Of a stretch of 58,558 nucleotides of DNA, positions 16,518 through 58,558 are shown one piece after another (position 1 is the first letter of the stretch; each line of letters opens with the position of its first letter). Source of the DNA: a virus. Taxonomy: Duplodnaviria; Caudoviricetes. The notes under the pieces were generated by a model. It did not search any database and was not told the DNA's origin. It worked only from the letters and a program-made list of their open reading frames with translations. The stretch lies in IMG/VR virus record IMGVR_UViG_3300010403_000180, positions 1-58,558 of that record, one strand, 5' to 3'. The position numbers were made by a program, and so were the translations under genes.

Positions 16518-16518
16518 G

Positions 16519-20633: not shown

Positions 20634-20634
20634 G

Positions 20635-20811: not shown

Positions 20812-20813
20812 GA

Positions 20814-22635: not shown

Positions 22636-22639
22636 GGTT

Positions 22640-27063: not shown

Positions 27064-27067
27064 GGTC

Positions 27068-27967: not shown

Positions 27968-28739
27968 TGAATTTGTCGGTGGCTGCTAGCACGGGCATTT
28001 CAACTCCGTTAGCTTTTGCAAAATCTAGGATTGCCTTTGCATCTTTCGGTAAACACTTTCCCCAATAGCCTCTCTTGCCTTTGTGCATGATGGTCAAATG
28101 TGTCCTACCTACCCTTTTGTCGGCTGCTAAACCATCAACAACTCCGTCCCATTGTTCCTCGGTAAAGCCAATCTTCTTGCATAGGTCATAGATTTCGTTG
28201 TTCTTGGCAACCTTCACGGAGAACCAAGTGTTCTTGGCGTACTTAATCATCTCGGCAACAATGGCTGGGACAATCCTTTCATGCGGGGCAAGCGGTAACT
28301 GTTGCATCACGTCCTTGGCAACGTTTAAGCTCTTTTCGGTGTAGCCCAATACTTGGCTGTCTGGGTGGTTCATGTCTTGGTCGCTGGTTTCCTCGGTTAA
28401 GAACTCTGGGTTAAACAGTATCTTATGCTGTGGGAATTTAGCTTGCAGTTTGTCAGTGGTGCCTGGGGTAATCGTTGATTTTAAGATGATGGTCTTCTCT
28501 CCTGTGATATGGGTCAATGCTTCCTCAACAATGCTGGTGTTGCATCCTACGCCCATCACATACGGGGTTGGCAGGGCAACGTAAATAAAGTCTGCCGCAT
28601 TCACGTCCTCAATTTTTCCTACTCCTTTTAAGTCAAAACAGAAAAGTTCATAGTGAGGCTTGTTCTCAAAGTACCTTCGCAATGCACCGCCCACCATGCC
28701 ATGACTTCCAATGATTCCCACTTTGTATTTTTTATCCAT
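27924..28739 (-). CDS. UDP-glucose/GDP-mannose dehydrogenase family protein (short form)
   Basis: GSHGMVG, LPTP, KSTITPGTT, NPEFL, AEMIKY..N, GYWGKCLPKD. Confidence 0.88.
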   Translation of the reverse strand: MDKKYKVGIIGSHGMVGGALRRYFENKPHYELFCFDLKGVGKIEDVNAADFIYVALPTPYVMGVGCNTSIVEEALTHITGEKTIILKSTITPGTTDKLQAKFPQHKILFNPEFLTEETSDQDMNHPDSQVLGYTEKSLNVAKDVMQQLPLAPHERIVPAIVAEMIKYAKNTWFSVKVAKNNEIYDLCKKIGFTEEQWDGVVDGLAADKRVGRTHLTIMHKGKRGYWGKCLPKDAKAILDFAKANGVEMPVLAATDKFNDELLDKQGYKKFI

Positions 28740-28743
28740 ATTT

Positions 28744-29745
28744 TTATATGAGTTTTTTAGTCCACGTTTGTGGAGTTTTCTCGTTAATAATTTCTATTGG
28801 TAAATGATATTTGAAACTCTTGGTTCCTCGGCCTTTAATGTAAAGCACCATCTCACGCAACCCGTCTTCCATCTTCCATTTTGGTTTATAGGCAAACAAA
28901 GCCCGTGCCTTATCAGCCGAGCAGTTTGCTTCCTTCACTTCTTGGGGTCGTCCTGTAATATATATTGGCTTTAAATCAAAGTTTAGGATATTGGCAATTA
29001 CCCGTGCCAACTCATTGATGGTTACGAATTCTTTATCGGGTCCAATGTTAATGACCTCGCCCACAACGTCTGGGTGGGTTGCCATCTGATAGAGCGGGTC
29101 AATGCAGTCCTGCACAAAGCTGAAACATCGCTTCTGTTCTCCGTCTCCGTAAATGATTGGCTGTTCGCCTTTGAGCATCTTGTTGATAAAGATACTGGCT
29201 ACATTTCGGAATGGGTCATCATACTTCTGGCGTGGACCAATGATGTTGTGTGGTACGGCAATCACATACTCCATGCCGTGAACTTCTGATAAGTTCCTAA
29301 GCATCAGCTCTGCCGCATACTTGGCAATGCCGTAGGGGTCTTGCGGGTTAGGCACCATGTCTTCTCTGAATGGCGTTTCGTTCGTTCCATAGCGAGCCAT
29401 AGATGAACAAAGCACAAACCTCTTTACTTTGTTTTGAATGGCCGCTGATATTACACTGGCACTCGCCAATGAGATATTAGCGGTAATGAGGTGTGGACTG
29501 AACACGCTTAATCCTTCATAGGCGGTTGCGGCACAATGGTAAACCACATCCACGTCCTTCATGCAGTTGACCATGCTGTTTAAGTATTTGCAGTCAAGGA
29601 AATGAAAATCAACCTTGTCTGAAACATTGTCTTGGTAGCCACCTATTAAATTATCGCACCCAGCAACTTCGTGCCCTTCTGCTAGGAACTTGTCGGCAAG
29701 ATGACTCCCCAAGAAACCTGCCACCCCTGTAATAAACACTTTCAT
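28744..29745 (-). CDS. NAD-dependent nucleotide-sugar epimerase/dehydratase
   Basis: TGVAGFLGSH, YGIAK, GDGEQKRCFSFV. Confidence 0.92.
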   Translation of the reverse strand: MKVFITGVAGFLGSHLADKFLAEGHEVAGCDNLIGGYQDNVSDKVDFHFLDCKYLNSMVNCMKDVDVVYHCAATAYEGLSVFSPHLITANISLASASVISAAIQNKVKRFVLCSSMARYGTNETPFREDMVPNPQDPYGIAKYAAELMLRNLSEVHGMEYVIAVPHNIIGPRQKYDDPFRNVASIFINKMLKGEQPIIYGDGEQKRCFSFVQDCIDPLYQMATHPDVVGEVINIGPDKEFVTINELARVIANILNFDLKPIYITGRPQEVKEANCSADKARALFAYKPKWKMEDGLREMVLYIKGRGTKSFKYHLPIEIINEKTPQTWTKKLI

Positions 29746-30920
29746 TAAATGAATATTACTGCGTCCCCCCCTTCGTCAGTAAATGGTAATGATGCATATC
29801 TTCCTGCGTCCATGCCGTGGTCATTGACCTTGACTGGGTCGTCGGTAGATTTGCCGTCTTTTGTTTTCCATGAATAACTTTTTGCTTCCTTCTGTAAATT
29901 TATTGAATCCTTCGTTATATAAAACTTGTGGCTCTTAACATAATCAATGCCCGCCTTCACATCCTTGTCTGCCGATTCAATGCTGTACCCTGCCCGTTCA
30001 ATCGCCTCAATTCGGGCTGGCTCGGTGTCGGAGAATATCGTCGTTGACTTATCAATCCCCAGGCTATTCATTAGGTCAATTAAGTCATCATTGGTTAAGT
30101 GGCTCTGGTAAATATGTTCCTTCCAGTACAAGTCTTTGTCCTTCTCTCTGACTTCAATCAATGCGGTCGGGTTGTTAAAGCCAAAGTCTAAGCCGTAGTG
30201 CCTTCTGTCATACTTCTCTGGCAGTTCATTGACCAGCTCCCAGTGGGTGTAAATGTTGCTCTCGGCCAATCCTCTCTCGCCTAAGCCGTAAATCTTCCAG
30301 TAGTTTTGGTCTTTGTCTTTGTATCCTTCAATTTCATTAACAATGCTCTTGGGTAAAAATGGGTTGTCCTTATAGCTTGACCTGTGGATAATGCAGTCCT
30401 TCCTTGGCAATACCTCATCGTAAATCCAGTGGAACTGATAGCTGGGGTTGTAGTCCATAAAAATCATCTTGCTCGTTCGGAGTGCTAGCTGTCGGAAATC
30501 TTCAAGCTTGAATTCGTTTGCCTCGTTCATCCATAGGTAGTGTCTCTTTCGTGAGCGGACCTTCATCGGTTGGTCAACCGCTAAGAATTCTATCTGGCTT
30601 CCAGTCTTCGGATAGGTGAACGTGTGGGTGGCCTTATTGTGAAACTGCTCGTCGTATATTCCCATCTCGTCTAGCTGGGCAATCACATCCTTCATGGTGG
30701 TGGCTACTAAGGCGGGAAAAGTCTTTCTGGCTATCGTAATTAAAACGCCTTCTTCCTCTTGCAGAATATAGCAACATAGTTGAGCCAAGCTGATTGATTT
30801 ACTACTTCCCGTTCCGCCTTCCTCAACAATGATTTTATATTCTTTCTTCTGGTATTCTGCATAGGCTCGTCTAAATACCCTCGTTATCGGAATTTCTATT
30901 TCGTCGGTTGTTGAATTCAT
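29745..30920 (-). CDS. terL: Terminase large subunit (PBSX/SPP1-like)
   Basis: EGGTGSSKS Walker A, WMNEANE, DYNP, YKDNPFL, GLDFGF, NDHGMDAGRY. Confidence 0.93.
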   Translation of the reverse strand: MNSTTDEIEIPITRVFRRAYAEYQKKEYKIIVEEGGTGSSKSISLAQLCCYILQEEEGVLITIARKTFPALVATTMKDVIAQLDEMGIYDEQFHNKATHTFTYPKTGSQIEFLAVDQPMKVRSRKRHYLWMNEANEFKLEDFRQLALRTSKMIFMDYNPSYQFHWIYDEVLPRKDCIIHRSSYKDNPFLPKSIVNEIEGYKDKDQNYWKIYGLGERGLAESNIYTHWELVNELPEKYDRRHYGLDFGFNNPTALIEVREKDKDLYWKEHIYQSHLTNDDLIDLMNSLGIDKSTTIFSDTEPARIEAIERAGYSIESADKDVKAGIDYVKSHKFYITKDSINLQKEAKSYSWKTKDGKSTDDPVKVNDHGMDAGRYASLPFTDEGGDAVIFI

Positions 30921-31322: not shown

Positions 31323-31787
31323 TTACATTTTCTTATGGCATTCAGCACATAGAGTTTTGTTGTGCTTAATTAAGTTTTGAAACAATTTGTTTTTTATCTC
31401 CGTTGATGAGATGCCCTTAAAGTAAGGAAGCACCACTACCTTACCGCCAATCTTTCTCATGTATTCACGTTCCTTGTCCTTGGTTTTATCCCACTCTTGA
31501 CAAATTACATAAGTGTTTACCTTATACTTCTTGAGTATAGCCAGTGGGCTCATCACATCCCGCTTCCCTACCCCGATTACTTTATCCACATACCGCAATC
31601 CCTCAATGGTTTTCTTTCTGAAATTGAATGGGATAACGGTCTCTTTATTCTTGTAAAACCTAATTGCTTCATCGGTGTTCACACCAACAATCAGATAACC
31701 AAAATCCTTTGCTCTTTTAATAGCTACCAGTTGTCCGTAGTGAAACATATCAAACGCTCCTTGGAAAAATACAATATTCTTTTTCAT
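31323..31787 (-). CDS. Cytidylyltransferase (TagD/RfaE-like)
   Basis: GAFDMFHYG, LIVGVNTD, YVDKVI, GISSTEI. Confidence 0.88.
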   Translation of the reverse strand: MKKNIVFFQGAFDMFHYGQLVAIKRAKDFGYLIVGVNTDEAIRFYKNKETVIPFNFRKKTIEGLRYVDKVIGVGKRDVMSPLAILKKYKVNTYVICQEWDKTKDKEREYMRKIGGKVVVLPYFKGISSTEIKNKLFQNLIKHNKTLCAECHKKM

Positions 31788-45604: not shown

Positions 45605-45898
45605 CTATCCCTTTTTTCCCATCAATGCCTGCTGAACAATGGCTTTGTAGAACACGTCGTACAAAGTGATAGCACCCGCAAAGATTATTCCAGCATTTTC
45701 TACGAAGTTTGCTGGTAAAAATTGCATGTACCACATTGCAACTGCGATAACTGCTGAAACAATCAACAATGCCAACTGCGTAACCAGCGAACCGTATCGT
45801 GTTTCAACGTCTGCCCATAGTTTCTTGGCTAACTGGATAATCAAGGTCGCTGCCAAGGAACCTCCGCCTAAAAATGTCAATAATGTTATGGTATCCAT
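45605..45898 (-). CDS. Putative holin
   Basis: 97 aa, 2-3 transmembrane segments, lysis context. Confidence 0.65.
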   Translation of the reverse strand: MDTITLLTFLGGGSLAATLIIQLAKKLWADVETRYGSLVTQLALLIVSAVIAVAMWYMQFLPANFVENAGIIFAGAITLYDVFYKAIVQQALMGKKG

Positions 45899-46112: not shown

Positions 46113-47105
46113 TTAGTTAATGGCAAACCTTTTATTAAGGTCTAGCCTTGTTAGTATTCCAACGAACCCCGTGGCTGGGATGCCATGTCGCTTCTGGTAA
46201 ACCTTCACGGCCGCAGTGGTCTTTGGTCCGTAATACCCAAGGTTGGCACCTACTTCCTCACGGTGAAGTTCCCCATCGTAAATCAAGCACTCCTGCAAAA
46301 TCTTCGTTTCGGGGTTTAGCTTCTGGCTTGGGCCAAGGTTATTTCCAAAGAAGTAAGCTGGCTTGTTGGTTGGGTCGGGCAATAATTCCTGCCAATTATT
46401 TGGCAGGTCTTTTAGTATAGCCCAGGCTTCAAATGGGGTGTAGTTAAGCGGTGCTTTGAAAAGTCCGCTATCTCCCCAAAATTCTCCCCAGCTATTCTGA
46501 CCAATAATAAATTCTTTGAAGTATCCGTGCTCTTTTACGGCATGTCCCCAGATAGTTTCTCCTGCCATCGGTGGTCTAATCAATCCTGTCTGCCATCCGC
46601 CATTAGAGCCATGAAAACCCACCATAACGGCTCCTAGGGTGTATACCGCACGCTTAATGGCCTCTGGGGTAGGTTCAACCCGTACAAAGCCTTTAATGCG
46701 GTACTTGGCTATTAACGGTGCATCGTTGGGGTCTCCGCCTTTGGGCAGGCATCCGATGTTCTTCATTATCAGCATGGCGGTTCTTAAAAATGTGCCATCT
46801 AAGCTTGGAAAACCGTCAACCAGTTTGCACTGTTCATACATCCAGTCATCATCAAATTCCATTAGATTTCCTTCTTCTTTTTCCTTGCCCTCTTTTACAG
46901 AACAAGAGGAACAGCCAACGCATTTTGGTTTCTGTCCCTGATTCTTTTGGGTGGTCTTTCCCAAATCAAATTGGTCTGGGATTGGATTCTCTCCCAAAAT
47001 ATTTTCAATCACCGCCTCGGCGGGAATGTCTCTATGGTCAGTTAATGAAGGAAACACATTGTTCACTCTCACATCAACTGGCAGTTTTGGTTCTTCTACT
47101 GGCAT
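46113..47105 (-). CDS. Papain-like (C1) peptidase with C-terminal peptidoglycan-binding domain; probable endolysin
   Basis: NQGQKPKCVG, GHAV, QNSWGEFWGDSG; GYYGPKTTAAVKVYQ..GFVGILTR. Confidence 0.85.
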   Translation of the reverse strand: MPVEEPKLPVDVRVNNVFPSLTDHRDIPAEAVIENILGENPIPDQFDLGKTTQKNQGQKPKCVGCSSCSVKEGKEKEEGNLMEFDDDWMYEQCKLVDGFPSLDGTFLRTAMLIMKNIGCLPKGGDPNDAPLIAKYRIKGFVRVEPTPEAIKRAVYTLGAVMVGFHGSNGGWQTGLIRPPMAGETIWGHAVKEHGYFKEFIIGQNSWGEFWGDSGLFKAPLNYTPFEAWAILKDLPNNWQELLPDPTNKPAYFFGNNLGPSQKLNPETKILQECLIYDGELHREEVGANLGYYGPKTTAAVKVYQKRHGIPATGFVGILTRLDLNKRFAIN

Positions 47106-47764: not shown

Positions 47765-48175
47765 CTATAATGATTTTTTGATAACCTCTTGATGCTCCTT
47801 CTCTAAAATAGAAGTTCTGGCAACGTTCAAGTCGTTAATGTTTTTCATAAAGTTCCTAATATCTTTAAGGACATTTTCTAAGTCTGGGTTTCGGTTCGTA
47901 GCAATTTGATTAAGCGTTTGAATCTGCTTATCTTTTTCACTGACTATTCCTTCAAGCTTTGAAATCCTTCCCGTAAATCTATTTTCCAGTTCGTGCATGG
48001 CCTTTGTCGCCCCAACCAAATTATCACGGCATTCCTGAATGTTTGCCTTTTGTTGTTTGTCTAATGTATCGTAGTTTGCAATAACCTCTTGGGTTATTTT
48101 TTTTGAACCTGACCTCCATTCTTTGAAGCCGAGGAATGCTACTACCAGAAGTGTTGTTACTGCTGTCCAATCCAT
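47765..48175 (-). CDS. Membrane-anchored coiled-coil protein (holin/lysis accessory-like)
   Basis: N-terminal TM segment then coiled coil. Confidence 0.6.
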   Translation of the reverse strand: MDWTAVTTLLVVAFLGFKEWRSGSKKITQEVIANYDTLDKQQKANIQECRDNLVGATKAMHELENRFTGRISKLEGIVSEKDKQIQTLNQIATNRNPDLENVLKDIRNFMKNINDLNVARTSILEKEHQEVIKKSL

Positions 48176-48179
48176 TTTT

Positions 48180-51100
48180 TTACTGACTTAATTCTATAGG
48201 TTTAACCTCCCAAAAGATAGCGGCAAACTGACCAGACTTGACTTCAACCCAGTGTTTTCCAAACCAGTGTCTTACCAGTTCGTAAATAATAGTTTGAAAT
48301 GGCGGTGCTGAAGGGGAAGCGGAGGCACTTATGCTTGGGCTAACAGAGGGAGAAGCACTCGGACTTGCTGAAGGGCTTACTGACGGACTGACTGATGCGG
48401 AAGGTGATTGACTGGGTGAAGAAGAGGGGCTGGAAGAAGGCGAGGCAGAAGCACTCGGGCTTTGGCTTGGTGAAGAACTTGGCGACTGGCTAGGTGAAGA
48501 ACTTGGTGAAACCGAAGGAGAAACACTCGCTGACGGGCTTTGTGAGGGACTGCTGGAAGGGCTGGCAGAAGGAGATGAAGATGGCGAACTGCTTGGCGAA
48601 GCCGAAGCGGAAGGACTTTGACTGGGACTTGAAGAAGGTGAAGATGATGGGCTTGCGGAGGCACTCGGTGATTGTGATGGCGAAGAAGATGGACTTGCAG
48701 ACGGACTGGCAGAGGGCGAAGCTGATGGTGATACGGAAGCTGAAGGTGAGGCACTCGGTGAAGAACTCGGAGATGAGCTTGGTGATGCGGAAGCAGACGG
48801 AGATAATGATGGTGATGCACTCGCACCATCACTCGGTGAGGCGGAAGGGGAAGATGATGGACTTACAGAAGCACTTGGTGAGGCTGACGGAGATGGTGAG
48901 GGGGAAACGGAAGGTGAAGGACTAGGAGAAACTGATGCACTCGGACTTTGTGAGGGACTGCTACTTGGTGAAGCGGACGGACTTACCGAGGGCGATACGC
49001 TGGCGGATGGTGATTGGGAGGGAGAAGGAGATGGTGAAACGGAGGGTGAAACTGAAGGACTAACCGAGGCTGAAGGACTTTGACTGGGAGACGCTGACGG
49101 ACTTACACTGGCACTAGGGCTTTGACTTGGTGAACTGGATGGAGAAGCTGAAGGACTTTCTGACGGGCTTTTAGAAGACGATGGACTGGCTGAAGGTGAT
49201 GAGCTAGGTGATACGGAAGCTGAAGGCGAAGCGGATGGAGAGACTGAAGCACTTGGAGACTGGCTAGGGCTTGGAGAGGGTGAAATTGAGGCACTCGGAG
49301 ATTGGGATGGAGAAGAGGAAGGGCTTACAGAAGGAGACTGTGATGGGCTGCTGGACGGAGAGGCACTCGCACTCGGTGATACCGAGGCGGAGGGGCTTTG
49401 TGAAGGACTACTTGATGGACTAGAACTAGGGCTTGCACTAGGGCTTACGCTCGGAGATACTGATGCAGAGGGAGATTGTGAGGCTGACGGGCTTTGGCTC
49501 GGAGATGAACTTGGCGAGGCGGATGGACTAACCGAAGCGGAGGGTGATTGGCTTGGAGAAGATGATGGAGAGGCGGAGGCGGAGGGTGACTGGGATGCCG
49601 AAGGCGACTGACTGGGTGATGATGAGGGGCTGGATGAGGGAGAGGCGGAGGCACTAGGAGAGGCGGAGGGTGATGAACTTGGACTTGATGATGGTGAAGA
49701 AGATGCGGATGGGGAAGCAGACGGGCTTGAAGAAGGGGATGCTGACGCACTAGGACTTGCTGAGGGAGAGGAGGATGGGGAAGCGGACGGAGAACCAGAT
49801 GCAGAGCCAGCAGTTGGAATATATACAATTAAAATTCCTATTTCATATACCTTGTAGGTATCAGATACCGACTTTGTAGCAAGTCCAATATCGGCACCAC
49901 TACCACTAGGATATGAAGTAATGTTTCCAGCATTAAAGGCTAAAGTTGGAGAAGCTGCTGGGGAACTGATATCTTGAGGCGAGCCGTTAATAATTAGAGA
50001 TATAGTTCTTGGTAAAGTAAGGGACTGAACATTAGCCCAACCAATTACATCAATGATACTAAAACCTGTAATGTTAATATCCCCTTCTGATGCAGTTTCT
50101 ATATTGTATTCTTCAGTCAGGGCTCCCGCAGTGGCTATAGACCAGCCATTAGCAATATCAGTTGCTCTTTCATTAACTTGTGGAGAATGCCCCGTGCCGT
50201 AACCAGAACCACCAGAACCAATTTGAGTAGTCCAATCATTTGCCGTTCCATTCGCCTTTGGACGCTTTGCCGTTACCCAAATATCCCCCGTATCTATCAA
50301 TCCAGCGTAATCATCAACATAAATATCGCTAAGACGGGTAGCCATGGTAGTTGGTGCTCCGCTAACTGCAAAAGTCAATGTGGATGTCCCTGTATTGGTT
50401 ATGGTTGCATTCGTTACCGAAATTGCAGAAACTCCATCCTTGAAAACTTCAAACCTATTATGGGTAGTATCGGTAATGGTATATGCTAAAGAAATTCTAT
50501 ACCATTGCCCAGTTGAAAGAGTTGGACCATCGCCTCCTATTTGATTCGTAGTCTCAAATAACTGTAGAACACCAGCACTTGTAACCTTCAAAGAAGCAAC
50601 AACCGAACCACTACCATTCACCATCTGTAAGATAACTTGTGAACCAGAAGATGGTAAGGTTTCAATATATATATAGTGACTTACTCTTCTACCAGCATCA
50701 TTAAGTATTGCAGATTTTTGTATAAAATTAGAACTACCTCCTGGTAACTTAATTGACTTTATATGCCCCCCATGGACAAAATCTGTTGCCAAGGAAGCAC
50801 CAGAAACAGTGCCCCAAAATCCACCAGCTGTAGTTATGGCAACATTAAAACCAGCATCTCCACCTGGGTCAGCAAAAATTGTATTAGGAGTTCCAGGAGA
50901 AAATGAAGGCGATATTGAGGGACTTACAGATGGAGAAACCGAGGCGGAGGGGCTAGCGGAGGGCGAAGAAGATGGGGAGACGGATGCAGAAGGTGAAGCT
51001 GACGGGCTGGCGGAGGGGCTTCTTGAGGCTGAAGGCGAGAGTGAAGGTGATGCGGAAGGCGAGGCAGATTTTCCAGCAATGAAGTATTTAGGGATTTCTA

Positions 51101-51236
51101 AACCATGTTTTTCAAACCACCAGCACAAGTGAATTGGCTTGTAGTTTAATAGGATTTCTTCACGAACAAAACCCTTCAATAGCCAGTGAAGGGCGTTAGT
51201 AGTTTTGTGAATAATTTTTCCTATTAGTCTTTCCAT
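48180..51236 (-). CDS. Mucin-like Ser-Pro repeat protein with LamG/lectin-like beta domain (putative virion fibre)
   Basis: 1018 aa: conserved leader, short SPS tract, beta domain (LSTGQWYRISL..EVFKDG..SDIYVDD), ~500-aa SPS tract, Trp-rich tail. Confidence 0.8.
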   Translation of the reverse strand: MERLIGKIIHKTTNALHWLLKGFVREEILLNYKPIHLCWWFEKHGLEIPKYFIAGKSASPSASPSLSPSASRSPSASPSASPSASVSPSSSPSASPSASVSPSVSPSISPSFSPGTPNTIFADPGGDAGFNVAITTAGGFWGTVSGASLATDFVHGGHIKSIKLPGGSSNFIQKSAILNDAGRRVSHYIYIETLPSSGSQVILQMVNGSGSVVASLKVTSAGVLQLFETTNQIGGDGPTLSTGQWYRISLAYTITDTTHNRFEVFKDGVSAISVTNATITNTGTSTLTFAVSGAPTTMATRLSDIYVDDYAGLIDTGDIWVTAKRPKANGTANDWTTQIGSGGSGYGTGHSPQVNERATDIANGWSIATAGALTEEYNIETASEGDINITGFSIIDVIGWANVQSLTLPRTISLIINGSPQDISSPAASPTLAFNAGNITSYPSGSGADIGLATKSVSDTYKVYEIGILIVYIPTAGSASGSPSASPSSSPSASPSASASPSSSPSASPSASSSPSSSPSSSPSASPSASASPSSSPSSSPSQSPSASQSPSASASPSSSPSQSPSASVSPSASPSSSPSQSPSASQSPSASVSPSVSPSASPSSSPSSSPSQSPSASVSPSASASPSSSPSQSPSVSPSSSPSQSPSASISPSPSPSQSPSASVSPSASPSASVSPSSSPSASPSSSKSPSESPSASPSSSPSQSPSASVSPSASPSQSPSASVSPSVSPSVSPSPSPSQSPSASVSPSVSPSASPSSSPSQSPSASVSPSPSPSVSPSPSPSASPSASVSPSSSPSASPSDGASASPSLSPSASASPSSSPSSSPSASPSASVSPSASPSASPSASPSSSPSQSPSASASPSSSPSSSPSQSPSASASPSSSPSSSPSASPSSSPSQSPSASVSPSVSPSSSPSQSPSSSPSQSPSASASPSSSPSSSPSQSPSASVSPSVSPSASPSASPSVSPSISASASPSAPPFQTIIYELVRHWFGKHWVEVKSGQFAAIFWEVKPIELSQ

Positions 51237-51763
51237 GGATGGAGATTAGGTATCGGCTTATTAACCTGATAATAAAAGATTTGTTCTGCCGAACCACTTG
51301 GCTTGTTAATTCCCATCCGTCTAAATTGATTATATGCTCCCATGTCGGAATGTAAACCATTCACGACAATGTAATTCGCAATTCTTCCAAGATTATTTAC
51401 AAACTCCTTTTTAGTAACAAAGGGACATGGACTTGAGCAGTCCTTAGTATCAAACAAATCTACCAAAACGGCATCAAACTTTCGGAAAGTTTCAACGTAT
51501 TTTTCCGCATCCATTTCAATAAATTCAACTCCGTAGCGGTTCTCTTTTATGGGTTCAATATCCACTGCCGTGATTGGGACATCACCATAGAGCAATCGGA
51601 TTAACCCCGCCACTGTTCCATCTCCATAGCCGAGCATCAAAACACTCTCTGGTTTATATTGCGGAACCATGTAAATCCAATAAGAGAAGGTTAAATACGT
51701 TGTTGGAGGGTATGCCGAATATGAATTACCATTATTGTCCTCCGTTAAGAGTAGATTGCTCAT
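51224..51763 (-). CDS. Class I SAM-dependent methyltransferase, paralog of 3824-4342
   Basis: WIYMVPQYKPESVLMLGYGDGTVAGL..VPITAVDI. Confidence 0.78.
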   Translation of the reverse strand: MSNLLLTEDNNGNSYSAYPPTTYLTFSYWIYMVPQYKPESVLMLGYGDGTVAGLIRLLYGDVPITAVDIEPIKENRYGVEFIEMDAEKYVETFRKFDAVLVDLFDTKDCSSPCPFVTKKEFVNNLGRIANYIVVNGLHSDMGAYNQFRRMGINKPSGSAEQIFYYQVNKPIPNLHPWKD

Positions 51764-52736
51764 GTGCTTTTAAGTTGTTCAGGGCTTCCTGTGTCCAACC
51801 TGGATTTTTTTCATTGTGGTAGGGTATAGGCCAGAACTTTTCTATTAACCACGATACTGGGTGAATGGCTTTCGGCCACTTATTATTAAAGATTAAATCT
51901 CGCACTTTGTCTCTTGTTTCTTGCTGACTTCTGCCGTTGGTAGGCCAAGGGAAGTGAAGTACGGTGTTGGTTCTAAAAAGGTGGGCATACCAAGTCTTGT
52001 GATTTACTAAAACCCTGCCTCCTGATAGCCATGTTTTACATGCCACTTCAATGCCCTGGCTTCCCCAGTTTCCTAGGGCTTCGTCGCAGATATTCAAGTC
52101 AAAATATTTCTCTCTGGTAAGCATAAAACATGACCCTTGCACTGACATGCTCTCGGTCAAACCTATCGTATCTCTGGCGTTAAAGTATTCTGGTCTGTTT
52201 CGGTATTCGTTAAAATACTGAAAATGCGGCTCTGAATCAAAGCTGTATGAGGTGCTCTGGGGGCTCTCCTTTCCAATCCAAACCATCTTTATTTTTATCC
52301 TTTTGCTTCCACAATTATCACACTTCGGCGGTTTATTTGCTTGGTACCATTTCTTTCCGCACCCATAGCATTTCCAGTCAAAGGCGTGCAGATTTCTCAT
52401 CACTGGTATCATTGTAACATTATCGCCAGCGACCTTAAATGCTTCCAACATTTTTCGGTCAAAACCTTGGTCAAAAGCACAGTGGGCATCCACTTTCATA
52501 ACGTATTTCCCTCTTGCTAATTTAGCGGCGTAATTAGTTGCGGCTCTCTGCCCAACCGACTTGGGAAGGTAAATAATATTCACTCTTTCGTTCTGCACAA
52601 TGGGAGGGTCTGTCCATTCGCCATCTAAAACCGCAATGACTTCGGTGTCTGCTTCTATGTGCTCAATGATATCTTGTATGGTTCTCGCCAGAAGCATTTC
52701 GTTTCTGGCTGGAATCAGTATTGATAAATCCTTCAT
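51732..52736 (-). CDS. GT-A glycosyltransferase with polypeptide-GalNAc-transferase-like motifs
   Basis: LSILIPARNE, VDAHC, GSCFML, WGSQGIEVACKTWLSGG, YAH. Confidence 0.85.
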   Translation of the reverse strand: MKDLSILIPARNEMLLARTIQDIIEHIEADTEVIAVLDGEWTDPPIVQNERVNIIYLPKSVGQRAATNYAAKLARGKYVMKVDAHCAFDQGFDRKMLEAFKVAGDNVTMIPVMRNLHAFDWKCYGCGKKWYQANKPPKCDNCGSKRIKIKMVWIGKESPQSTSYSFDSEPHFQYFNEYRNRPEYFNARDTIGLTESMSVQGSCFMLTREKYFDLNICDEALGNWGSQGIEVACKTWLSGGRVLVNHKTWYAHLFRTNTVLHFPWPTNGRSQQETRDKVRDLIFNNKWPKAIHPVSWLIEKFWPIPYHNEKNPGWTQEALNNLKAHEQSTLNGGQ

Positions 52737-53065
52737 CGTTTCTGCCTCATTTTTTTAATTTCTTTGAAATTCTTAATCAGCTTTAAGTTCCCACCAGAAC
52801 TTCCCGTTTCATCTTTATAGGTGTCTCGGTAGTAAGCCAACCGATTTACCATCTTGGTAGCTTGAACCATTGCAGTAACCAGATGCTCTGTTATTTTTTC
52901 CTTCAACTCTTTGTCTGGGTAATCTTGGATTTGGTCATAAATTACCCTTAGCGTTTCACAAATACATTCTTTCCAGTGGGTATCGTAAATAAGCGTCCTT
53001 CTTGCTTCTGCCCTTTCATTAGGTTCCATAAGTTTTAATAATTCCTGGTTGCTTAAATTCTTCAC
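52733..53065 (-). CDS. Hypothetical protein
   Basis: 110-aa ORF in cluster. Confidence 0.55.
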   Translation of the reverse strand: MKNLSNQELLKLMEPNERAEARRTLIYDTHWKECICETLRVIYDQIQDYPDKELKEKITEHLVTAMVQATKMVNRLAYYRDTYKDETGSSGGNLKLIKNFKEIKKMRQKR

Positions 53066-53225
53066 TCAATCCATTTTTTAGCTGGGCTCGGTATCGGTTT
53101 AAATCCTGAATCCTTTTGGCATCTTCTTTGGTGTGGATATTATCGGCCACCTTTTCTTCTAAAAAATAAATCTTGATGTTGGTGATGCTCAACTCGTCTA
53201 TTAAATCGGCAATGGTTTTGTTCAT
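53019..53225 (-). CDS. Hypothetical protein (small coiled coil)
   Basis: TIADLIDELSITNIKI..LNRYR. Confidence 0.55.
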   Translation of the reverse strand: MNKTIADLIDELSITNIKIYFLEEKVADNIHTKEDAKRIQDLNRYRAQLKNGLSEEFKQPGIIKTYGT

Positions 53226-54052
53226 AATTTTTGGTAGAGTTTACTGATATTTTCTATGTGATACTTTTCGGCTTCGTTAATTAACCTTTCTGCGTCCCAA
53301 CCCTTCTGTAGTTTCTTAACTTCTGAAACCAGCTCTCTCATATTCTTTGCCTTGTAATAAAAGCCATCAACATCTTTGTACCCTAATTTCTGTTCTGAAA
53401 CTGTGGGAATCCCAAACGACATGGCATTTATTATCTTATTAGGGTGGTAATAGGGGGCATGGGTTAAAAATCCGAACGACCCGATTACTTGAATATCTAT
53501 GCTTTCGTAAAACTTAATCGTGTCTTCTCGCTTCTCAAAAGTTAAAAGAGAAACAAATTTTATACCCTCCTTTTCTAAAACTTCTTTTAACTCGGCAACT
53601 ATCCTTCTTTGAAATGGTTGGTTTGCTCCGATGTATCCACAGGTGGTTATCTCTTTTCTGGTTTTTTTCTTTCTTTCAAAATTAACATGATGGTGGGGTA
53701 TGTGGATAACTTTATTCGGTAAAACACTTTCTAGCCATTGTTTATGCGGATTAGTAAGAGCAATAACTTTTAGTTCTGGTCTTCCTTTTAACATCTGCGT
53801 AACTGTCATATCGTCCATGACATCAATGTAGTCATTACTTTTAACTGGCCTAAAGTCTCTTGGTTTAAGGTGGATGCACACATCGTTCTCAAAACCCTCT
53901 GTGGGGTTCAATTTAGCCCCTAGAAACGATGCTATCTCCTTACCCCGAATAATACTTGAAACCCGTTGGAGTGTTTTCCCACTGGGTTTGTTTAAGATAA
54001 ATGGTTCTTTTGCAAAAAATGAAATCATACTAGGTCTTGTGGCATAAACCAC
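53222..54052 (-). CDS. GT-B-fold glycosyltransferase-like protein
   Basis: SSIIRG, CGYIG, PNKIINAMSFGIPTV. Confidence 0.7.
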   Translation of the reverse strand: MVYATRPSMISFFAKEPFILNKPSGKTLQRVSSIIRGKEIASFLGAKLNPTEGFENDVCIHLKPRDFRPVKSNDYIDVMDDMTVTQMLKGRPELKVIALTNPHKQWLESVLPNKVIHIPHHHVNFERKKKTRKEITTCGYIGANQPFQRRIVAELKEVLEKEGIKFVSLLTFEKREDTIKFYESIDIQVIGSFGFLTHAPYYHPNKIINAMSFGIPTVSEQKLGYKDVDGFYYKAKNMRELVSEVKKLQKGWDAERLINEAEKYHIENISKLYQKL

Positions 54053-54720
54053 CCTTTAAGATTTTGTATTTCGTCCTCCCTCCAACCAGTTGGCTTCTTT
54101 CGGAATCCCTCTTTGTTCATCTTCTTTGGGGTCATATTGTGGTTGTCCCGAATATCTATAATCGGAAAATCTGAAATCCATTCCTCTGCTTTTGCAAGTT
54201 CTAGGTGATTGCCTTTATGTCGGCCTGGCTCGTACCCCAAATTCCTTGCCCAGCTTGGATTCCCGCCTGTTGGTAATTTGTCCCAACCATTTTGGTAAAT
54301 CAGTTCCAGTCTCCGCTTAAAAAAAGCAAGTGCTAATTTTCGGTTAGCACACATTCCCGAAAGAGAAGCTTGATGGTCATAGGCAACAACCCTCTTGCCG
54401 CTGTAATCCCACTTCCAAATGTTCGTATTATAGTAAAAAGTATCATCTCGTGGCGGGGTAAATCCAAAATGAGAAGGATGGTAGAGCACATCATGTTCGC
54501 AAAAGAAAACGTAATCCTCTTTGCTATTTTCCAGTGCTGCAATTATCCTTTTGAAATATCCCACAATACTTGGGTCTGGCACCACCACGTTACTGCCAAA
54601 TTCCATGGGCTTCAAAGAAGCAGAGCTTATCGGCAATCCGCTTTTGAGAATCTGCTTTTGCACGCCATCCGTGATAGATGGCCTAGCCGAGTTGTTTGTA
54701 TAGTAGATTATTCCCTTCAT
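54025..54720 (-). CDS. GT-A-like glycosyltransferase
   Basis: GIIYYT, YVFFCEHDVLYHP. Confidence 0.65.
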   Translation of the reverse strand: MKGIIYYTNNSARPSITDGVQKQILKSGLPISSASLKPMEFGSNVVVPDPSIVGYFKRIIAALENSKEDYVFFCEHDVLYHPSHFGFTPPRDDTFYYNTNIWKWDYSGKRVVAYDHQASLSGMCANRKLALAFFKRRLELIYQNGWDKLPTGGNPSWARNLGYEPGRHKGNHLELAKAEEWISDFPIIDIRDNHNMTPKKMNKEGFRKKPTGWREDEIQNLKGWFMPQDLV

Positions 54721-54721
54721 T

Positions 54722-55372
54722 TTATGGTCTGAAGAAGAAGAAACTCCTCCACTTATCTCTTTTCATCCCTTTTGTTTTTTCTTTTGCCCCAAGCACATAC
54801 AGTTTTTGAATCTTCATAATCTGAACGCAAGCATCAACCCCTACTTTTACATGCACACCATCATAAATCATCGGATGCTTTAATTCTCCATAGCCCGTAA
54901 TGGTAGCGTAGTCATGTCCTGCAATAATTCCTCCATGCTTTACCTTTTTTTCCCACCCAAAAATATCCATGCAAACGTAGGGCAATGTATGATTCGCATC
55001 AATGTAAACGAAGTCCAAAGAATCATCGGGAAAGTCTTTAAGAGCATCCATTGAATACTTGTGGATGATAGTGTAATCTAATCCTTTTAAGTTTGCCTCT
55101 GCCAATTCTTTTTGGCTCTTGTAGGCTCCCTCACGCTTGTACCCTTCGTAGTTTTCCCAGCAATCCACCCCGTACATTTTGAGTCCCGCCTTGCATAGGG
55201 TTACACCGTACTCTCCGAAATTAACTCCTATTTCTACACCTTTTTTGAATCCGTTGTTAAAAAGAAATTTAGCAAACTCCTCTCTATCGGTATCGGGGAT
55301 ATCTACAATCCTGCTATTTTTTGCTGGTTTTAATTTTATGCCTTCTTCTATTTTCATGGTTTTACAAACCAC
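54722..55372 (-). CDS. Methyltransferase (Methyltransf_24-like)
   Basis: GVEIGV..G, SLDFVYIDANH, GGIIAGHDY. Confidence 0.9.
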   Translation of the reverse strand: MVCKTMKIEEGIKLKPAKNSRIVDIPDTDREEFAKFLFNNGFKKGVEIGVNFGEYGVTLCKAGLKMYGVDCWENYEGYKREGAYKSQKELAEANLKGLDYTIIHKYSMDALKDFPDDSLDFVYIDANHTLPYVCMDIFGWEKKVKHGGIIAGHDYATITGYGELKHPMIYDGVHVKVGVDACVQIMKIQKLYVLGAKEKTKGMKRDKWRSFFFFRP

Positions 55373-55917
55373 CAGTTTGGAACTTGGTAGTCGTTATTGA
55401 ATATAACATTTAGCGTTTTAATTTTGTGGGCTTTGACGTAAGTATCAACAGGGGTAATAACATCTCCCGTCTTGTGAGGTTTGTAATCATCTCCGAAAAC
55501 AATTCCCCCTTTTCGCACCCTCCTTGCCCACTCAATGATGTCAGTCATCACATAATCAAAAGTGTGAGCACCATCTATGTAGACAAAATCAAGCGAACCA
55601 TAATCAATATCTCTCACGGCTTCCATACTGGTCTTTCTGACGAACTCACAGACAGGATAGCCAGCAACATTTTTTCTTGCTGTCTCATAAAACTGCTCCT
55701 GCCTTTCGGGGGTGTATATCTTTGACCTTGGGTCTTCGGGTACGGTGGCGTAAGGGTCAACTAAGTACAGTTTTTCAAGAGACTTTATAGACTCACAAAG
55801 AATCTTAGAAAAATCTCCATGTCTCACTCCTATTTCCGCACCACGCTTAAAGCCCATCTCTCCAAACATCTTGGCTAGGTCGTTTCTACTCTTTTCCGTT
55901 GACTTATTTATCTCCAT
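55354..55917 (-). CDS. Methyltransferase (Methyltransf_24-like)
   Basis: GAEIGVRHG, SLDFVYIDGAH, GGIVFGDDY. Confidence 0.9.
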   Translation of the reverse strand: MEINKSTEKSRNDLAKMFGEMGFKRGAEIGVRHGDFSKILCESIKSLEKLYLVDPYATVPEDPRSKIYTPERQEQFYETARKNVAGYPVCEFVRKTSMEAVRDIDYGSLDFVYIDGAHTFDYVMTDIIEWARRVRKGGIVFGDDYKPHKTGDVITPVDTYVKAHKIKTLNVIFNNDYQVPNWWFVKP

Positions 55918-56800
55918 CTAATATATTTTGTTGATATTCTAGCCAACCCTTTTTCCCAAACTCTCCATAGGTCTCAATCCAACCCCAACCCATTTTTAAG
56001 TTTACTGGATAAACGGGTCCTCCAACTTTTTTCTTTCTCCAAGCAATTTCTGGCAAATACTGTTCAAGGATTTTCCTTAATGCGTATTTACCGTACTCTA
56101 CGTCCTTAATCTTTTCTTCTATCGGTAAGTTCCTCATGAAGTTATCTAACACAATGTTATCTTGATAAGGACGAATGTTCTTAATGCCAAAGTGAGCTGC
56201 AATCCCGTTGCTCATGTCATCCATATCCTTACGCATTTCAACGTCAGCTTCTAAAATGGTAAAAGCATGTGTGTTAGTTAATCTCCTAATCAAGATTGGG
56301 TAAAGCGGTGGAAGTATCTGGTCAATCAAAGGCTTGTAATGTTCAAAGGCTTCAAACTCGTACACCTTATACAAATAATTGATAATCAAATCCCGTGCGT
56401 AACCACACATGACCTCATCAGGACCATCACCCAAAATAACCTCCTTCACTCCCATTTCTGCTAGTTTTTGATACATGCAATAGAGCGGGAAAATGTTGAA
56501 GTGTGGGATAGGTCTGCCAATCGCTTTCACGGCAATCTTCACATACTCCTCAAACTTTGATTCGTCTGGCTTGACTATAACGTGTTCTATATTCAGCTGC
56601 TTAGCCACCTTTTTAGCCCACTCAATTTCGTTGTACTTATCCCCTTCTGGTAACTCAACTGAAATCGCAAACTTCGGCTTAATATGAACCGCAAGCAGTG
56701 AAGAATCAATCCCGCCCGAAAGACATAATGGTGTCCCCTCATATTTTTTACACTCCTCTACTATTTTTTGTTCTAATTTTTCCATAGTATTTCTTTCCAA
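55904..56800 (-). CDS. Asparagine-synthetase C-terminal (PP-loop) domain protein
   Basis: LSGGIDSS, LGDGPDE..GY, KYALRK, WRKK; no N-terminal Cys glutaminase domain. Confidence 0.85.
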   Translation of the reverse strand: MERNTMEKLEQKIVEECKKYEGTPLCLSGGIDSSLLAVHIKPKFAISVELPEGDKYNEIEWAKKVAKQLNIEHVIVKPDESKFEEYVKIAVKAIGRPIPHFNIFPLYCMYQKLAEMGVKEVILGDGPDEVMCGYARDLIINYLYKVYEFEAFEHYKPLIDQILPPLYPILIRRLTNTHAFTILEADVEMRKDMDDMSNGIAAHFGIKNIRPYQDNIVLDNFMRNLPIEEKIKDVEYGKYALRKILEQYLPEIAWRKKKVGGPVYPVNLKMGWGWIETYGEFGKKGWLEYQQNILDGDK

Positions 56801-57621
56801 TTATCGGGCCATCCTGGGATAGGCCAGAACTTTTGGATTAAGTTAATAAAACCGTCTTTGTTATCGTGAACCCAGTGCTGATAAGAATACTTATAGCACC
56901 TCCGTCTTAATTTATCGTCCATGTGGTAGCCACGTCCCTCCTGTTTAGTTTTATACTGATGGGCGTACCATGTGTTTTTATTCACAACCACCCGACCGCC
57001 AGCAAGCCAAGTGGCAGTGCCGATATAGGCGGCTTCTTGGGCATGTAGTTGGTTGTATCCTTCGTCATTCATAAAATCCATTTTGTTCCACCAGTCCCGT
57101 GTCATAAACCAAAATGAGCCTTGAAAGGTAAGTACATCGTCAATCATCACATCCTTTCGCTGTATGCCCCTTTCCAGCCATTTATAGCCGTGTAGCGAGG
57201 TAGTTGGGTACTTTGGTGGGAATACCCAATACTCGTAGTCAATCGGCACTTGTTCATCTTCAAAAAATGGTCGCCATTCTGATTCACAAAGTTTATACCT
57301 GCGGGGAATTTGTATCCAATTATCTTGGTGGTCTTTTTTTAATTGCACATCAAAACCTGGAGCAACAATGCAGTGAGCGTCAATTTTCATTACATATTTG
57401 CCAGTAGAAATTGCCACGGCTTCGTTAATGGAATACTTCATCCCGATGGCCTCTGGGTGGTAAATATATTTAACTCCCGCAATCTCGGTTGGATATGGTT
57501 TGCCTTCAACGATAACAATAATTTCAATCGGTTCTTTCGCCTTAGCCAAAAGGTCTTTGACCGTAACGTCAAGATATTTTTCGTTTCTGCTTGGGATTAT
57601 GATGCTGACTAAATTTTCCAT
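56773..57621 (-). CDS. GT-A glycosyltransferase (DAH paralog)
   Basis: VSIIIPSRNE, MKIDAHC, QGSFWFM, TWLAGG, NKNTWYAH. Confidence 0.85.
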   Translation of the reverse strand: MENLVSIIIPSRNEKYLDVTVKDLLAKAKEPIEIIVIVEGKPYPTEIAGVKYIYHPEAIGMKYSINEAVAISTGKYVMKIDAHCIVAPGFDVQLKKDHQDNWIQIPRRYKLCESEWRPFFEDEQVPIDYEYWVFPPKYPTTSLHGYKWLERGIQRKDVMIDDVLTFQGSFWFMTRDWWNKMDFMNDEGYNQLHAQEAAYIGTATWLAGGRVVVNKNTWYAHQYKTKQEGRGYHMDDKLRRRCYKYSYQHWVHDNKDGFINLIQKFWPIPGWPDNWKEILWKN

Positions 57622-58388
57622 AGAGGTTTGATGACGTTATTGTAATAATCTCCCCAAGCTTCTATGCAGTAGCCAATTTTGGGGTCATCTGATTGGCTTC
57701 CGTAGCGGTGAGTTCTTGGAAAGGTGTAATGCTTATGGGCAAACCAAGTATTTTTGTTAAGCATCATTTTCCCTCCTGCTTTCCATGTTTTGAAAATCAT
57801 TTCGTGCTGGTCTTGGTAGTGGTCTCCGTAGTGTTCCGCATCAAGCTCCACAATTACTTCGTCCCACCATTTCTTTGGCATTATCCAAAATGAACCTTGC
57901 ATTGCCATCGTTTCAGAAATAGGAACGTCCTTCATTTTCTCGTCCCTGCTAGGCCATCGCTGTCCTTCAAATTTGCCGTCTCTGATTTTTAGTTTCTCGT
58001 GAATGTAGGGTGGCACGTCCATCTTCTCCCACTTAATCGGGTCTAAGAAATATCTCGTGGCAGTCATTATCCAATTCGGCTGGCAACTCTCTGTCATGAT
58101 TTTATCAAAGCCTTTTCCAAAAATGCAGTGGGCATCCGTTCTCATTAAGAATTCTCCCTTAGCAATTTTAATACCAGCGTTAATAGCTCCCCGCATTCCT
58201 CGGTTTTCTCCTAAGTGAAGCTGAATAACTTTCTTATTATTTTCTTCACTAAAAACCAGCGGGGGGTTAGGCCAGCTTGCATTGTATACCGCAATAATTT
58301 CAATATCCCCTTCGGCGTTTTCAAGAATAGAGTCTATTGTTTTTTGCAGGTATGGGTCTTTGTATGCGGGTATAATTACTGAAAGCAT
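57609..58388 (-). CDS. GT-A glycosyltransferase (DAH paralog)
   Basis: LSVIIPAY, MRTDAHC, QGSFWIM, KTWKAGG, NKNTWFAH. Confidence 0.85.
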   Translation of the reverse strand: MLSVIIPAYKDPYLQKTIDSILENAEGDIEIIAVYNASWPNPPLVFSEENNKKVIQLHLGENRGMRGAINAGIKIAKGEFLMRTDAHCIFGKGFDKIMTESCQPNWIMTATRYFLDPIKWEKMDVPPYIHEKLKIRDGKFEGQRWPSRDEKMKDVPISETMAMQGSFWIMPKKWWDEVIVELDAEHYGDHYQDQHEMIFKTWKAGGKMMLNKNTWFAHKHYTFPRTHRYGSQSDDPKIGYCIEAWGDYYNNVIKPLWKI

Positions 58389-58411: not shown

Positions 58412-58558
58412 CTATGGTTGAGTAAGTTGTTTCAAGTAGCTTGTTCCAGTGTTTCCAGTGCTTCCATTTGCTCCAGCTCCAGCTCCAGTGCCAGGCGTTC
58501 CATGGGTTCCGCCTGTTCCACCAGTAAGAGTGATAGCCCCACTGTTAGTCAATGAGTA
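58412..58558 (-). CDS. C-terminal fragment of the Gly-rich tail protein that begins at 983
   Basis: YSLTNSGAITLTGGTGGTHGTPGTGAGAGANGSTGNTGTSYLKQLTQP*; TAG at 58414-58412. Confidence 0.75.
   Translation of the reverse strand, partial: YSLTNSGAITLTGGTGGTHGTPGTGAGAGANGSTGNTGTSYLKQLTQP

Follow-up and report, generated by a model that had tools for sequence, protein, structure and literature searches.

The 58,558-bp window analyzed here, a tailed-phage contig that makes up the whole of IMG/VR record IMGVR_UViG_3300010403_000180 and carries nearly all of its genes on the minus strand, encodes three paralogous glycosyltransferases (GTs) resembling the polypeptide N-acetylgalactosaminyltransferases (ppGalNAc-Ts; family GT27), which initiate mucin-type O-glycosylation in eukaryotes. 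Because these mucin-initiator-like enzymes are encoded beside proteins with long tracts in which serine occupies alternate positions, those proteins are probably sugar-coated fibres. We propose that the alternate-Ser tracts are O-glycosylated and methylated in the host cytoplasm, with the largest of the three enzymes (GT334) as the likely initiator, and that the products are displayed on the tail or its fibres, a reading to which we assign a probability of about 0.62.

The three enzymes are encoded on the minus strand at 51732–52736 (GT334, 334 amino acids), 56773–57621 (GT282, 282 amino acids), and 57609–58388 (GT259, 259 amino acids), exactly where the initial annotation of this DNA had placed three related open reading frames (ORFs). 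Pairwise BLASTP alignments (E = 4e-29, 9e-30, and 6e-37, with 27–32% identity over 235–309 residues) put their paralogy far beyond chance. The motifs that the annotation had listed as shared could all be located: DAHC was common to the three proteins and in register over a whole-length alignment, QGS[CF][FW] read QGSCF in GT334 and QGSFW in both GT282 and GT259, TWxxGG read KTWLSGG, ATWLAGG, and KTWKAGG in the same order, and TW[YF]AH read TWYAH, TWYAH, and TWFAH. The longer segment attributed to the first ORF, WGSQGIEVACKTWLSGG, was likewise found in GT334.

The resemblance to GT27, also claimed in the initial annotation, held up in sequence, profile, and fold comparisons. The Pfam family Glycos_transf_2 (PF00535) recognized all three paralogs (54.1, 44.4, and 60.5 bits, cutoff 23.3), only within residues 3–110 (residues 3–98 of GT259 and 6–95 of GT282). 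When GT334 was compared by phmmer with all sequences in the PDB (E <= 1), 16 of the 18 matches were ppGalNAc-Ts (best E = 3.8e-6), and the alignment ran on through the C-terminal WG..E..TW.GG..H region, pairing DAHC with the DAHC of GalNAc-T1, WGSQGIEVACKTWLSGG with WGGENLEISFRIWQCGG, and TWYAHLFR with SHVGHVFR. The single sequences of GT282 and GT259 returned N-terminal GT2-type matches, one match to GalNAc-T4 (E = 1e-3), and one spurious repeat protein, and were so uninformative that family profiles were needed. With these profiles, the best PDB match of the GT259 family (42 sequences) was GalNAc-T4 (E = 5.6e-11, positions 4–256), and the GT282 family (40 sequences) aligned over its full length (positions 6–256) only with ppGalNAc-Ts (E = 1e-9 to 1e-6), bacterial GT2 structures covering just the first ~100 positions of either profile. 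Across all three paralog families, ppGalNAc-Ts were the only proteins to which the profiles aligned in full length.

The fold comparison, which used the model of GT334 only, pointed to the same family. The AlphaFold2 (AF2) model (predicted local distance difference test score, pLDDT, 87.7; predicted template-modeling score, pTM, 0.86) retrieved GalNAc-Ts at each of the first 50 ranks of a Foldseek search. Its GT-A domain superposed by VIA-align on 29 GT27 entries over 258–282 residues at a root-mean-square deviation of 2.3–3.1 Å (Z = 24.4–27.7), as compared with Z = 19.1 for the best glycosyltransferase outside GT27. When 48,161 representative chains were compared exhaustively, without recourse to Foldseek, the two GT27 representatives again scored highest (Z = 26.8 and 25.3), with the next chain at 18.1. 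The three enzymes thus lie nearer to GT27 than to the polysaccharide GT2s by sequence, fold, and profile alike, so that the result which the initial annotation had named as its refutation, a grouping with ordinary polysaccharide GT2s, was not borne out.

The D-x-H motif and a C-terminal His, which are metal ligands in GT27, align between the phage and eukaryotic enzymes. Both residues of D-x-H and the His were invariant in the 32, 42, and 40 sequences of the GT334, GT259, and GT282 families, corresponding to D83/H85/H252 in GT334, D85/H87/H218 in GT259, and D81/H83/H221 in GT282. The W-G, the last E, and the TW.GG of the Gal/GalNAc-T motif are also kept, and a further likeness is the clustering of several paralogs next to genes for Ser/Pro-rich repeat proteins. 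The differences are just as plain. The proteins of 259–334 amino acids end with the catalytic domain, whereas the solved ppGalNAc-T chains span 436–546 residues, and their Rossmann strand begins at residue 3–5 with neither a hydrophobic segment nor a membrane anchor, as would suit enzymes of the cytoplasm rather than the Golgi. Furthermore, GT334 carries an insert with four nearly invariant cysteines in its family (C123/C126/C139/C142), and the candidate acceptor tracts, strictly alternate in Ser with almost no Thr, differ from GT27 substrates. Because identity to GT27 is only 16–20%, and because the strict WGGENxE motif, the ricin-type lectin domain, and the membrane anchor are missing and the four-Cys insert is present, the three enzymes are, as judged from sequence and models, GT27-like and not members of GT27.

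Scanning all minus-strand ORFs for Ser/Pro tracts singled out exactly two proteins, encoded at 48180–51236 and 1548–3827, and the capsid and tail-tube ORFs contained no Ser/Pro/Thr tract. The first, SP1018, is the 1018-amino-acid Ser-Pro protein already noted in the initial annotation and a candidate lectin-domain fibre. Its 53-residue N-terminal domain is followed by a Ser-x tract (residues 56–119), a central region (116–475), a second tract (473–979), and a short C-terminal end. For the central region we found 58 homologs, the majority beginning directly with this domain, and its AF2 model (pLDDT 84.5) comprises two beta-sandwiches that Foldseek matched to concanavalin A–like jelly-roll folds of lectins, lyases, and carbohydrate-binding modules (E ~1e-8, TMq 0.3–0.4); as modeled, the domain is a generic sugar-binding fold, and nothing more is implied. 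The second protein, SP759, is a 759-amino-acid tail protein encoded two genes past the tape measure. Its N-terminal 53 residues are 58% identical to those of SP1018 (E = 4e-17), and they precede a 199-residue Ser-x tract (residues 56–254) and a baseplate-hub-like body, within which residues 307–485 matched PHROG baseplate-hub families (E = 1.3e-6 and 1.9e-6).

Over the 507 residues of the long SP1018 tract and the 199 residues of the SP759 tract, Ser filled 98% of alternate positions in a single phase, and the intervening position was P, A, S, V, or Q, with almost no Thr. Because the tracts use all six Ser codons and Tandem Repeats Finder detected no DNA repeat in them, it is at the protein level that the alternate-Ser pattern is preserved. 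The composition of the window also changes here, with a GC content of 0.518 and a GC skew of +0.364 at 48001–50000, as compared with ~0.42 and a negative skew elsewhere; this rise reflects the Ser/Pro codons of the 1018-amino-acid gene and not a foreign island.

The GT334 gene is not the immediate upstream neighbor of the SP1018 gene, although the initial annotation had placed the cluster directly upstream, because the gene for U179, a small Rossmann-type protein of 179 amino acids (51224–51763, minus strand), separates the two. A paralog of this gene, U172 (3824–4342, minus strand; 51% identity, E = 1e-51), directly follows the tape-measure gene. Two paralogous pairs are therefore apparent, U172 with SP759 and U179 with SP1018, in each of which a small Rossmann-type gene precedes one encoding a Ser-tract protein with the 53-residue domain; U179 homologs also stood directly before Ser-tract genes in three of the related loci described below (L033, L038, and L067). 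A PDB profile search with U179 gave sub-significant matches, the top four to polyamine aminopropyltransferases (E = 0.013–0.27), and the Pfam family Methyltransf_25 matched at E = 0.015; these values weakly suggest a likeness to spermidine synthases or methyltransferases, to be taken as a lead only. A complex prediction for U179 (5-row alignment) and the N-terminal 58 residues shared by the Ser-tract proteins (3 rows), run without controls, scored 0.02 (mark, 0.32), a value that counts neither for nor against a complex.

To place this arrangement among its relatives, we collected homologs of GT334, of which there were 5973 (E <= 1e-3) among 6380 candidates. The best 120, excluding the window's own copy, were 62–79% identical to GT334, and all of the named ones among them came from metagenome-assembled genomes (MAGs) of Patescibacteria, bar one Dehalococcoidia MAG. 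We then examined 126 GT334 loci, 69 on viral contigs and 57 from species-representative genomes (mostly Patescibacteria MAGs), which collapsed to 116 clusters (61 viral and 55 genomic) when de-duplicated at 90% GT334 identity. A locus was considered assessable if it had at least 2.5 kb of sequence downstream of GT334, and an ORF counted as Ser-rich when it encoded 150 or more amino acids and S+P+T made up 55% or more of a 100-residue window. After de-duplication, such ORFs started within 2.5 kb downstream of GT334 on the same strand in 32 of the 43 viral and 21 of the 35 genomic assessable loci (38/49 and 22/36 before de-duplication), as compared with a background, among ORFs upstream of GT334, of 21/563 viral and 1/470 genomic, which corresponds to a 20- to 280-fold enrichment directly downstream.

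The module recurred in a characteristic order, in which a GT259/GT282-type paralog, copies of U231 (a candidate GT-A protein described below), Methyltransf_24 genes, and often a nucleotide-sugar dehydrogenase gene preceded GT334 and a large Ser/Pro-rich ORF. U231 homologs were present in 67 of the 69 viral loci (1–4 copies each), Methyltransf_24 genes in 54, and a nucleotide-sugar dehydrogenase in 20. Homologs of the window's head, tail, or terminase genes fell within the fetched flanks of 11 of the 61 viral and 2 of the 55 genomic clusters, and in four loci (L010, L018, L020, and L033) the cassette and its Ser-tract gene stood beside or among homologs of the portal, protease, capsid, adaptor, tube, and tape-measure genes. 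The gene order in the 126 loci, together with a second Ser-tract protein in the tail region, absent from the initial annotation, favors the interpretation offered there, that the phage O-glycosylates its own Ser-rich fibres; that interpretation is supported by sequence, predicted structure, and gene order, and the Ser tracts would be the acceptor. Among the 95 Ser-tract proteins with complete C-termini, 11 ended with one to three copies of a YWNGSxW[VIL]-type motif (for example, those encoded at 8918–11044 of L067, 11047–13920 of L002, and 14639–16228 of L096) that occurred in none of 1655 other ORFs, and the end of SP1018 (window 48180–48300) carries a divergent version of it.

The distribution of the cassette among cells raises the alternative that the Ser tracts are glycosylated without being part of the virion, the module being a host-derived moron that gives the infected or lysogenic cell a surface fibre or adhesin, a role that the versions in cells seem to play. 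The cassette and giant Ser-tract proteins occur in Patescibacteria MAGs, two of whose records are labeled chromosomes, and GT334 is 60–67% identical to the cellular copies. Of four cellular loci scanned along their flanks, three had a TatC gene directly after the giant Ser-tract genes (16904–17635 of L096, 18898–19725 of L097, and 19737–20492 of L104), although by eye no twin-arginine leader was seen at the N-termini of 11 Ser-tract proteins, cellular ones included. The phage itself carries a ParB-like gene, and SP1018, with its lectin-like domain, lies between the tail and lysis genes, the usual site of morons. Against such a moron, the window encodes no Tat or Sec component and, apart from the tape measure and a two-transmembrane holin candidate, no multi-spanning membrane protein, and neither tract protein has a signal peptide–like start. 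Moreover, in SP759 the same N-terminal domain and tract are fused to the baseplate-hub-like body right after the tape-measure gene, and in the four loci named above head and tail genes adjoin or surround the Ser-tract gene. We consider a moron of this kind rather unlikely.

One cellular contig speaks to the host of the phage group. At 115–18439 of L085, a 568-kb MAG contig and the fourth of the cellular loci scanned, we found a prophage-like region with tail-collar, collagen-repeat, cassette, two Ser-tract, peptidoglycan-binding, and integrase genes, whose order matches the tail–cassette–lysis order of the window. The presence of this prophage-like region in a cellular contig supports Patescibacteria (Candidate Phyla Radiation, CPR) as hosts of the group, and the host of the phage described here is probably a member of that lineage.

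All of the genes of the cassette (51224–58388) lie on the minus strand. Following GT259 and GT282, the gene at 55904–56800 encodes an AsnB-like amidotransferase reduced to its synthetase (PP-loop) domain (Pfam Asn_synthase, E = 5.8e-28, residues 25–260), with homologs in the cassettes of L067 (69% identity) and L083 (63%) and NCBIfam matches that all fell under cutoff. It is followed by two paralogous Methyltransf_24 methyltransferases (E = 6e-24 to each other), b at 55354–55917 (E = 3.8e-16) and a at 54722–55372 (E = 5.6e-15); these two genes and the AsnB-like gene had been correctly recognized in the initial annotation. Of the two additional GT-like genes claimed there, one stood: U231 (54025–54720, 231 amino acids), which has no Pfam match, appears to be a divergent GT-A glycosyltransferase, its ESM Atlas model (pTM 0.89) having TM-scores of 0.66–0.91 to glycosyltransferase/PF00535 (GT-A) clusters. 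The evidence for the other, a possible GT-B glycosyltransferase at 53222–54052, was weak, with a Glyco_trans_1_4 match (E = 1.3e-4, 22.7 bits) below the cutoff of 27; homologs with 33–48% identity are found in several cassettes. Between this gene and GT334 lie a conserved small protein of 68 amino acids (53019–53225), with homologs of 48–70% identity in L062, L083, L084, L089, and L102 and weak similarity to DUF4254 (E = 0.0033), and a 110-amino-acid ORF (52733–53065) with no Pfam or PHROG match. A PHROG assignment was obtained neither for the three paralogs nor for U231, U179, and the GT-B-like protein. The four-Cys insert of GT334 is Zn-ribbon-like.

A second glycan cluster of 14 kb (15564–29745, minus strand), delineated by Pfam and PHROG matches, lies between the large terminase (TerL) and portal genes. 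It comprises five GT genes (one a 528-amino-acid fusion of GT1 and GT2), four methyltransferases (two of the FkbM type), a polysaccharide deacetylase, two short-chain dehydrogenase/reductase (SDR) epimerase/dehydratases, a short nucleotide-sugar dehydrogenase, and a cytidylyltransferase-like gene. A second cytidylyl/adenylyl-transferase-like gene lies nearby at 31323–31787 (minus strand; CTP_transf_like, E = 6.6e-13), with TIGR01518 and rfaE_dom_II matches under cutoff. Glycan genes of both clusters take up ~36% of the 58.6-kb genome. Because all NCBIfam matches in the two clusters fell under the curated cutoffs, neither the sugars nor a specific pathway can be named. None of the enzymes of either cluster has a transmembrane segment, and neither cluster encodes a flippase, polymerase, or exporter, which argues that any chemistry would take place on soluble substrates in the cytoplasm; in the whole window the only multi-spanning membrane proteins were the tape measure and the two-transmembrane holin candidate.

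In the pathway that we envisage, the three GT-A paralogs, with their ppGalNAc-T architecture and D-x-H/C-terminal His metal site, would act in the host cytoplasm on the (S-P/A/S/V/Q)n tracts of SP759, the baseplate-hub-like tail protein, and SP1018, the fibre with the lectin-like beta-sandwich. GT334, encoded near the Ser-tract genes, would be the likeliest initiator on Ser, with chain extension left to the other two paralogs, U231, and the GT-B-like protein. The sugars of the chain would receive methyl groups from the two Methyltransf_24 enzymes, and the AsnB-like enzyme may convert a uronic acid to its amide. A varied supply of nucleotide sugars would come from the second cluster, with its dehydrogenase, epimerases, nucleotidyltransferases, and further GTs. 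Once decorated, the tail and fibre proteins would enter assembly, and the tail or fibre would bear a mucin-like glycoprotein in the form of a bottle brush.

The same set of enzymes might instead build or remodel a free, lipid-linked, or cell-wall glycan, as in serotype conversion, receptor masking, or synthesis of a capsule-like polymer, with the Ser tracts serving as unmodified spacers. The Pfam and NCBIfam assignments, which go no further than broad families common in polysaccharide loci (GT2/GT1, epimerase, and dehydrogenase), would fit this idea, as would the quarter to two fifths of assessable loci that have no adjacent Ser-rich ORF, and the available text of one account describes surveys in which nucleotide-sugar genes of Patescibacteria phages are taken as O-antigen-type auxiliary genes (PMC12911398). 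What makes it unlikely in our view is that neither cluster has a transmembrane glycosyltransferase, a flippase, a polymerase, or a ligase, that the core enzymes are nearest in fold and profile to the peptide-acting GT27 and not to polysaccharide GT2s, and that Ser-rich ORFs are so strongly enriched downstream. In addition, a strict alternation of Ser over 507 residues, written in scrambled codons, exceeds the needs of a spacer.

The glycosylation of serine-rich-repeat proteins in Gram-positive bacteria is initiated by the GT-B enzymes GtfA/GtfB. Because enzymes of that class start the glycan there, the GT27-like enzymes of the phage might not be the initiators, and might only extend on sugars a glycan begun on the Ser tracts by GT-B enzymes. 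Four genes of the Glycos_transf_1 type could supply the latter activity (those starting at 16519, 18002, and 25105 and, weakly, 53222). Known examples such as GspB, Fap1, SraP, and PsrP share with the phage proteins their very long dipeptide-type Ser repeats and dedicated gene cluster, and the TatC genes next door to the cellular Patescibacteria versions add to the likeness. The differences are that the conserved core here is of the GT27-like GT-A type, the initiators there being the GT-B enzymes GtfA/GtfB, that methyltransferases are prominent, and that the phage version has no exporter in place of accessory Sec, no SecA2/SecY2 family having turned up in general PHROG and Pfam scans of the window. 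According to the available text of reports on the Gram-positive systems, these proteins are glycosylated inside the cell before their dedicated export (PMC5578698, PMC7948813, PMC6973325). We nevertheless regard initiation by the phage GT-B enzymes as quite improbable: the gene that lies beside the Ser-tract gene is GT334, and a GT-B-like cassette gene is found in a minority of loci, whereas a GT259/GT282-type paralog and U231 are near-universal (and GT334 is universal by construction).

The clusters might also hypermodify the phage DNA with sugars, given that phage glycosyltransferases often act on DNA, as the available text of two sources reports (PMC12619734, PMC13326640). This we consider highly improbable, as no hydroxymethylase or base-modifying gene turned up in the general PHROG and Pfam scans, the fold is nearest to the peptide-acting GT27, and in cells the cassette homologs have genes for giant Ser-tract proteins and TatC as neighbors.

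Several observations weigh against cytoplasmic O-glycosylation of the tracts and their display on the virion, for which the evidence consists of sequence, predicted structure, and gene order only, making the glycosylation a prediction. At the level of the enzymes, GT334 has WGSQGIE where GT27 has WGGENLE, so that SQG replaces GEN and the central sugar-contacting positions differ, and in GT282 and GT259 the motif is unrecognizable, with no WGG and the acidic residue alone kept. A donor other than UDP-GalNAc is therefore conceivable. Nothing in the three proteins corresponds to the lectin domain by which GT27 enzymes are guided on mucins (no Pfam match), and a similar fold leaves the acceptor open, as sugars and lipids serve as acceptors for related GT-A enzymes whose cores are alike. 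Enzymes of the Glycos_transf_1-type GT-B class are also encoded by the phage. With respect to the acceptors, 11 of the 43 viral and 14 of the 35 genomic assessable loci had no Ser-rich ORF within 2.5 kb. Finally, SP1018 has no recognized virion-attachment domain, and the baseplate-hub label of SP759 comes only from its position and PHROG matches at E ~1e-6, a PDB sequence search with its body having found nothing significant. In a more far-reaching version of our proposal, the GT27-like enzymes themselves would set the first sugar on every second residue of tracts 200–500 residues long, so that a methylated bottle brush of glycoprotein would cover the tail and fibre of a phage that infects ultra-small bacteria, and their family, common to these phages and to Patescibacteria cells, would be the sister group, in prokaryotes and viruses, of the enzymes that initiate mucin-type glycosylation in eukaryotes. 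This version strikes us as doubtful, although worth entertaining.

The closest precedent among phages comes from mycobacteriophages. Virion glycosylation has been described for Che8, Corndog (cluster O), and Myrna (Freeman et al., 2023, as related in the available text of PMC12363180, PMC11256854, and PMC12619734), with the glycans at the C-termini of capsid and tail-tube subunits according to the available text of the last of these (PMC12619734). In Corndog, three GT genes and one for an O-methyltransferase lie between those for the portal and the protease, as stated in the available part of another report (PMC4351075). The two systems would have in common phage-encoded GTs and an O-methyltransferase near structural genes, for the modification, within the cytoplasm of the host, of virion proteins that the phage itself encodes (a prediction in the present case). 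Such genes adjoin structural genes in the window too, the cassette lying after the tail-fibre genes and the second cluster between TerL and portal. The two systems differ in enzyme class and host group, and in the acceptors, which here would be tracts of 64–507 residues carried by a tail protein resembling a hub and by a fibre with a lectin domain. A tblastn search with GT334 found no match (E 1e-3) in 50,697 phage records, and thus no homology to the mycobacteriophage enzymes was detectable at tblastn sensitivity. The literature searched gave no account of a cassette of GT27-like enzymes paired with alternate-Ser proteins, whether in phages or in Patescibacteria.

The remainder of the window has a siphovirus-like gene set, as assigned by PHROG and Pfam scans. 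The structural genes include the tape measure (4339–6372), tail tube (6941–7915), adaptor and neck genes, major head protein (9950–11116), protease/scaffold (11138–12088), and portal (12960–15317), accompanied by TerL (29745–30920), the small terminase TerS, RecT, an exonuclease, a DNA methyltransferase, and the ParB-like gene. The nearest relatives of the capsid among 50,697 deposited phages are only ~35% identical to it. A candidate endolysin with a papain-family peptidase domain and PG_binding_1 (46113–47105) forms a lysis pair with a candidate holin of 97 amino acids and two hydrophobic segments (45605–45898). Between the portal and the protease, 12200–12976 encodes a 258-amino-acid protein with no match in Pfam or in a PDB search, homologs of which (31–49% identity) occur at the 5′ boundary of the cassette in roughly twelve loci from Patescibacteria (L075, L079, L080, L083, L087, L089, L095, L097, L101, L104, and L116). 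Neither a terminal repeat nor a tRNA was found on the 58,558-bp contig. A Gly-rich (GGNGG-type) ORF at 3–983 runs off its start, and its final 147 bases (58412–58558) encode the C-terminus of a Gly-rich protein; the two are probably parts of one tail-fibre gene split by the contig ends, with some sequence missing, because joining the ends directly puts them out of frame. Given that the break seems to lie inside a Gly-rich fibre gene, the circular map would run from the tail-fibre genes to the cassette and then to the lysis genes.

Both O-glycosylation of Ser-repeat proteins and glycosylation of phage virions are known in kind, and what differs here is the enzyme class, the type of acceptor, and the host group. 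If our proposal is correct, the fibres made by tailed phages of the largely uncultured Patescibacteria would be methylated, mucin-like glycoproteins, produced by enzymes with the architecture of the animal mucin initiators, and phage virion glycosylation, so far on record only for mycobacteriophages, would reach another enzyme class, acceptor type, and host group. It would also provide a soluble, lectin-free, bacterially expressible relative of the ppGalNAc-Ts with a simple (S-x)n acceptor, of use in glycoengineering, and the origin of mucin-type O-glycosylation would become testable; were the sister-group relationship to hold as well, mucin-type O-glycosylation would not be a eukaryotic invention. 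For such phages, and for the cells that share the cassette, the finding would bear on how they stick to, or hide from, their partners.

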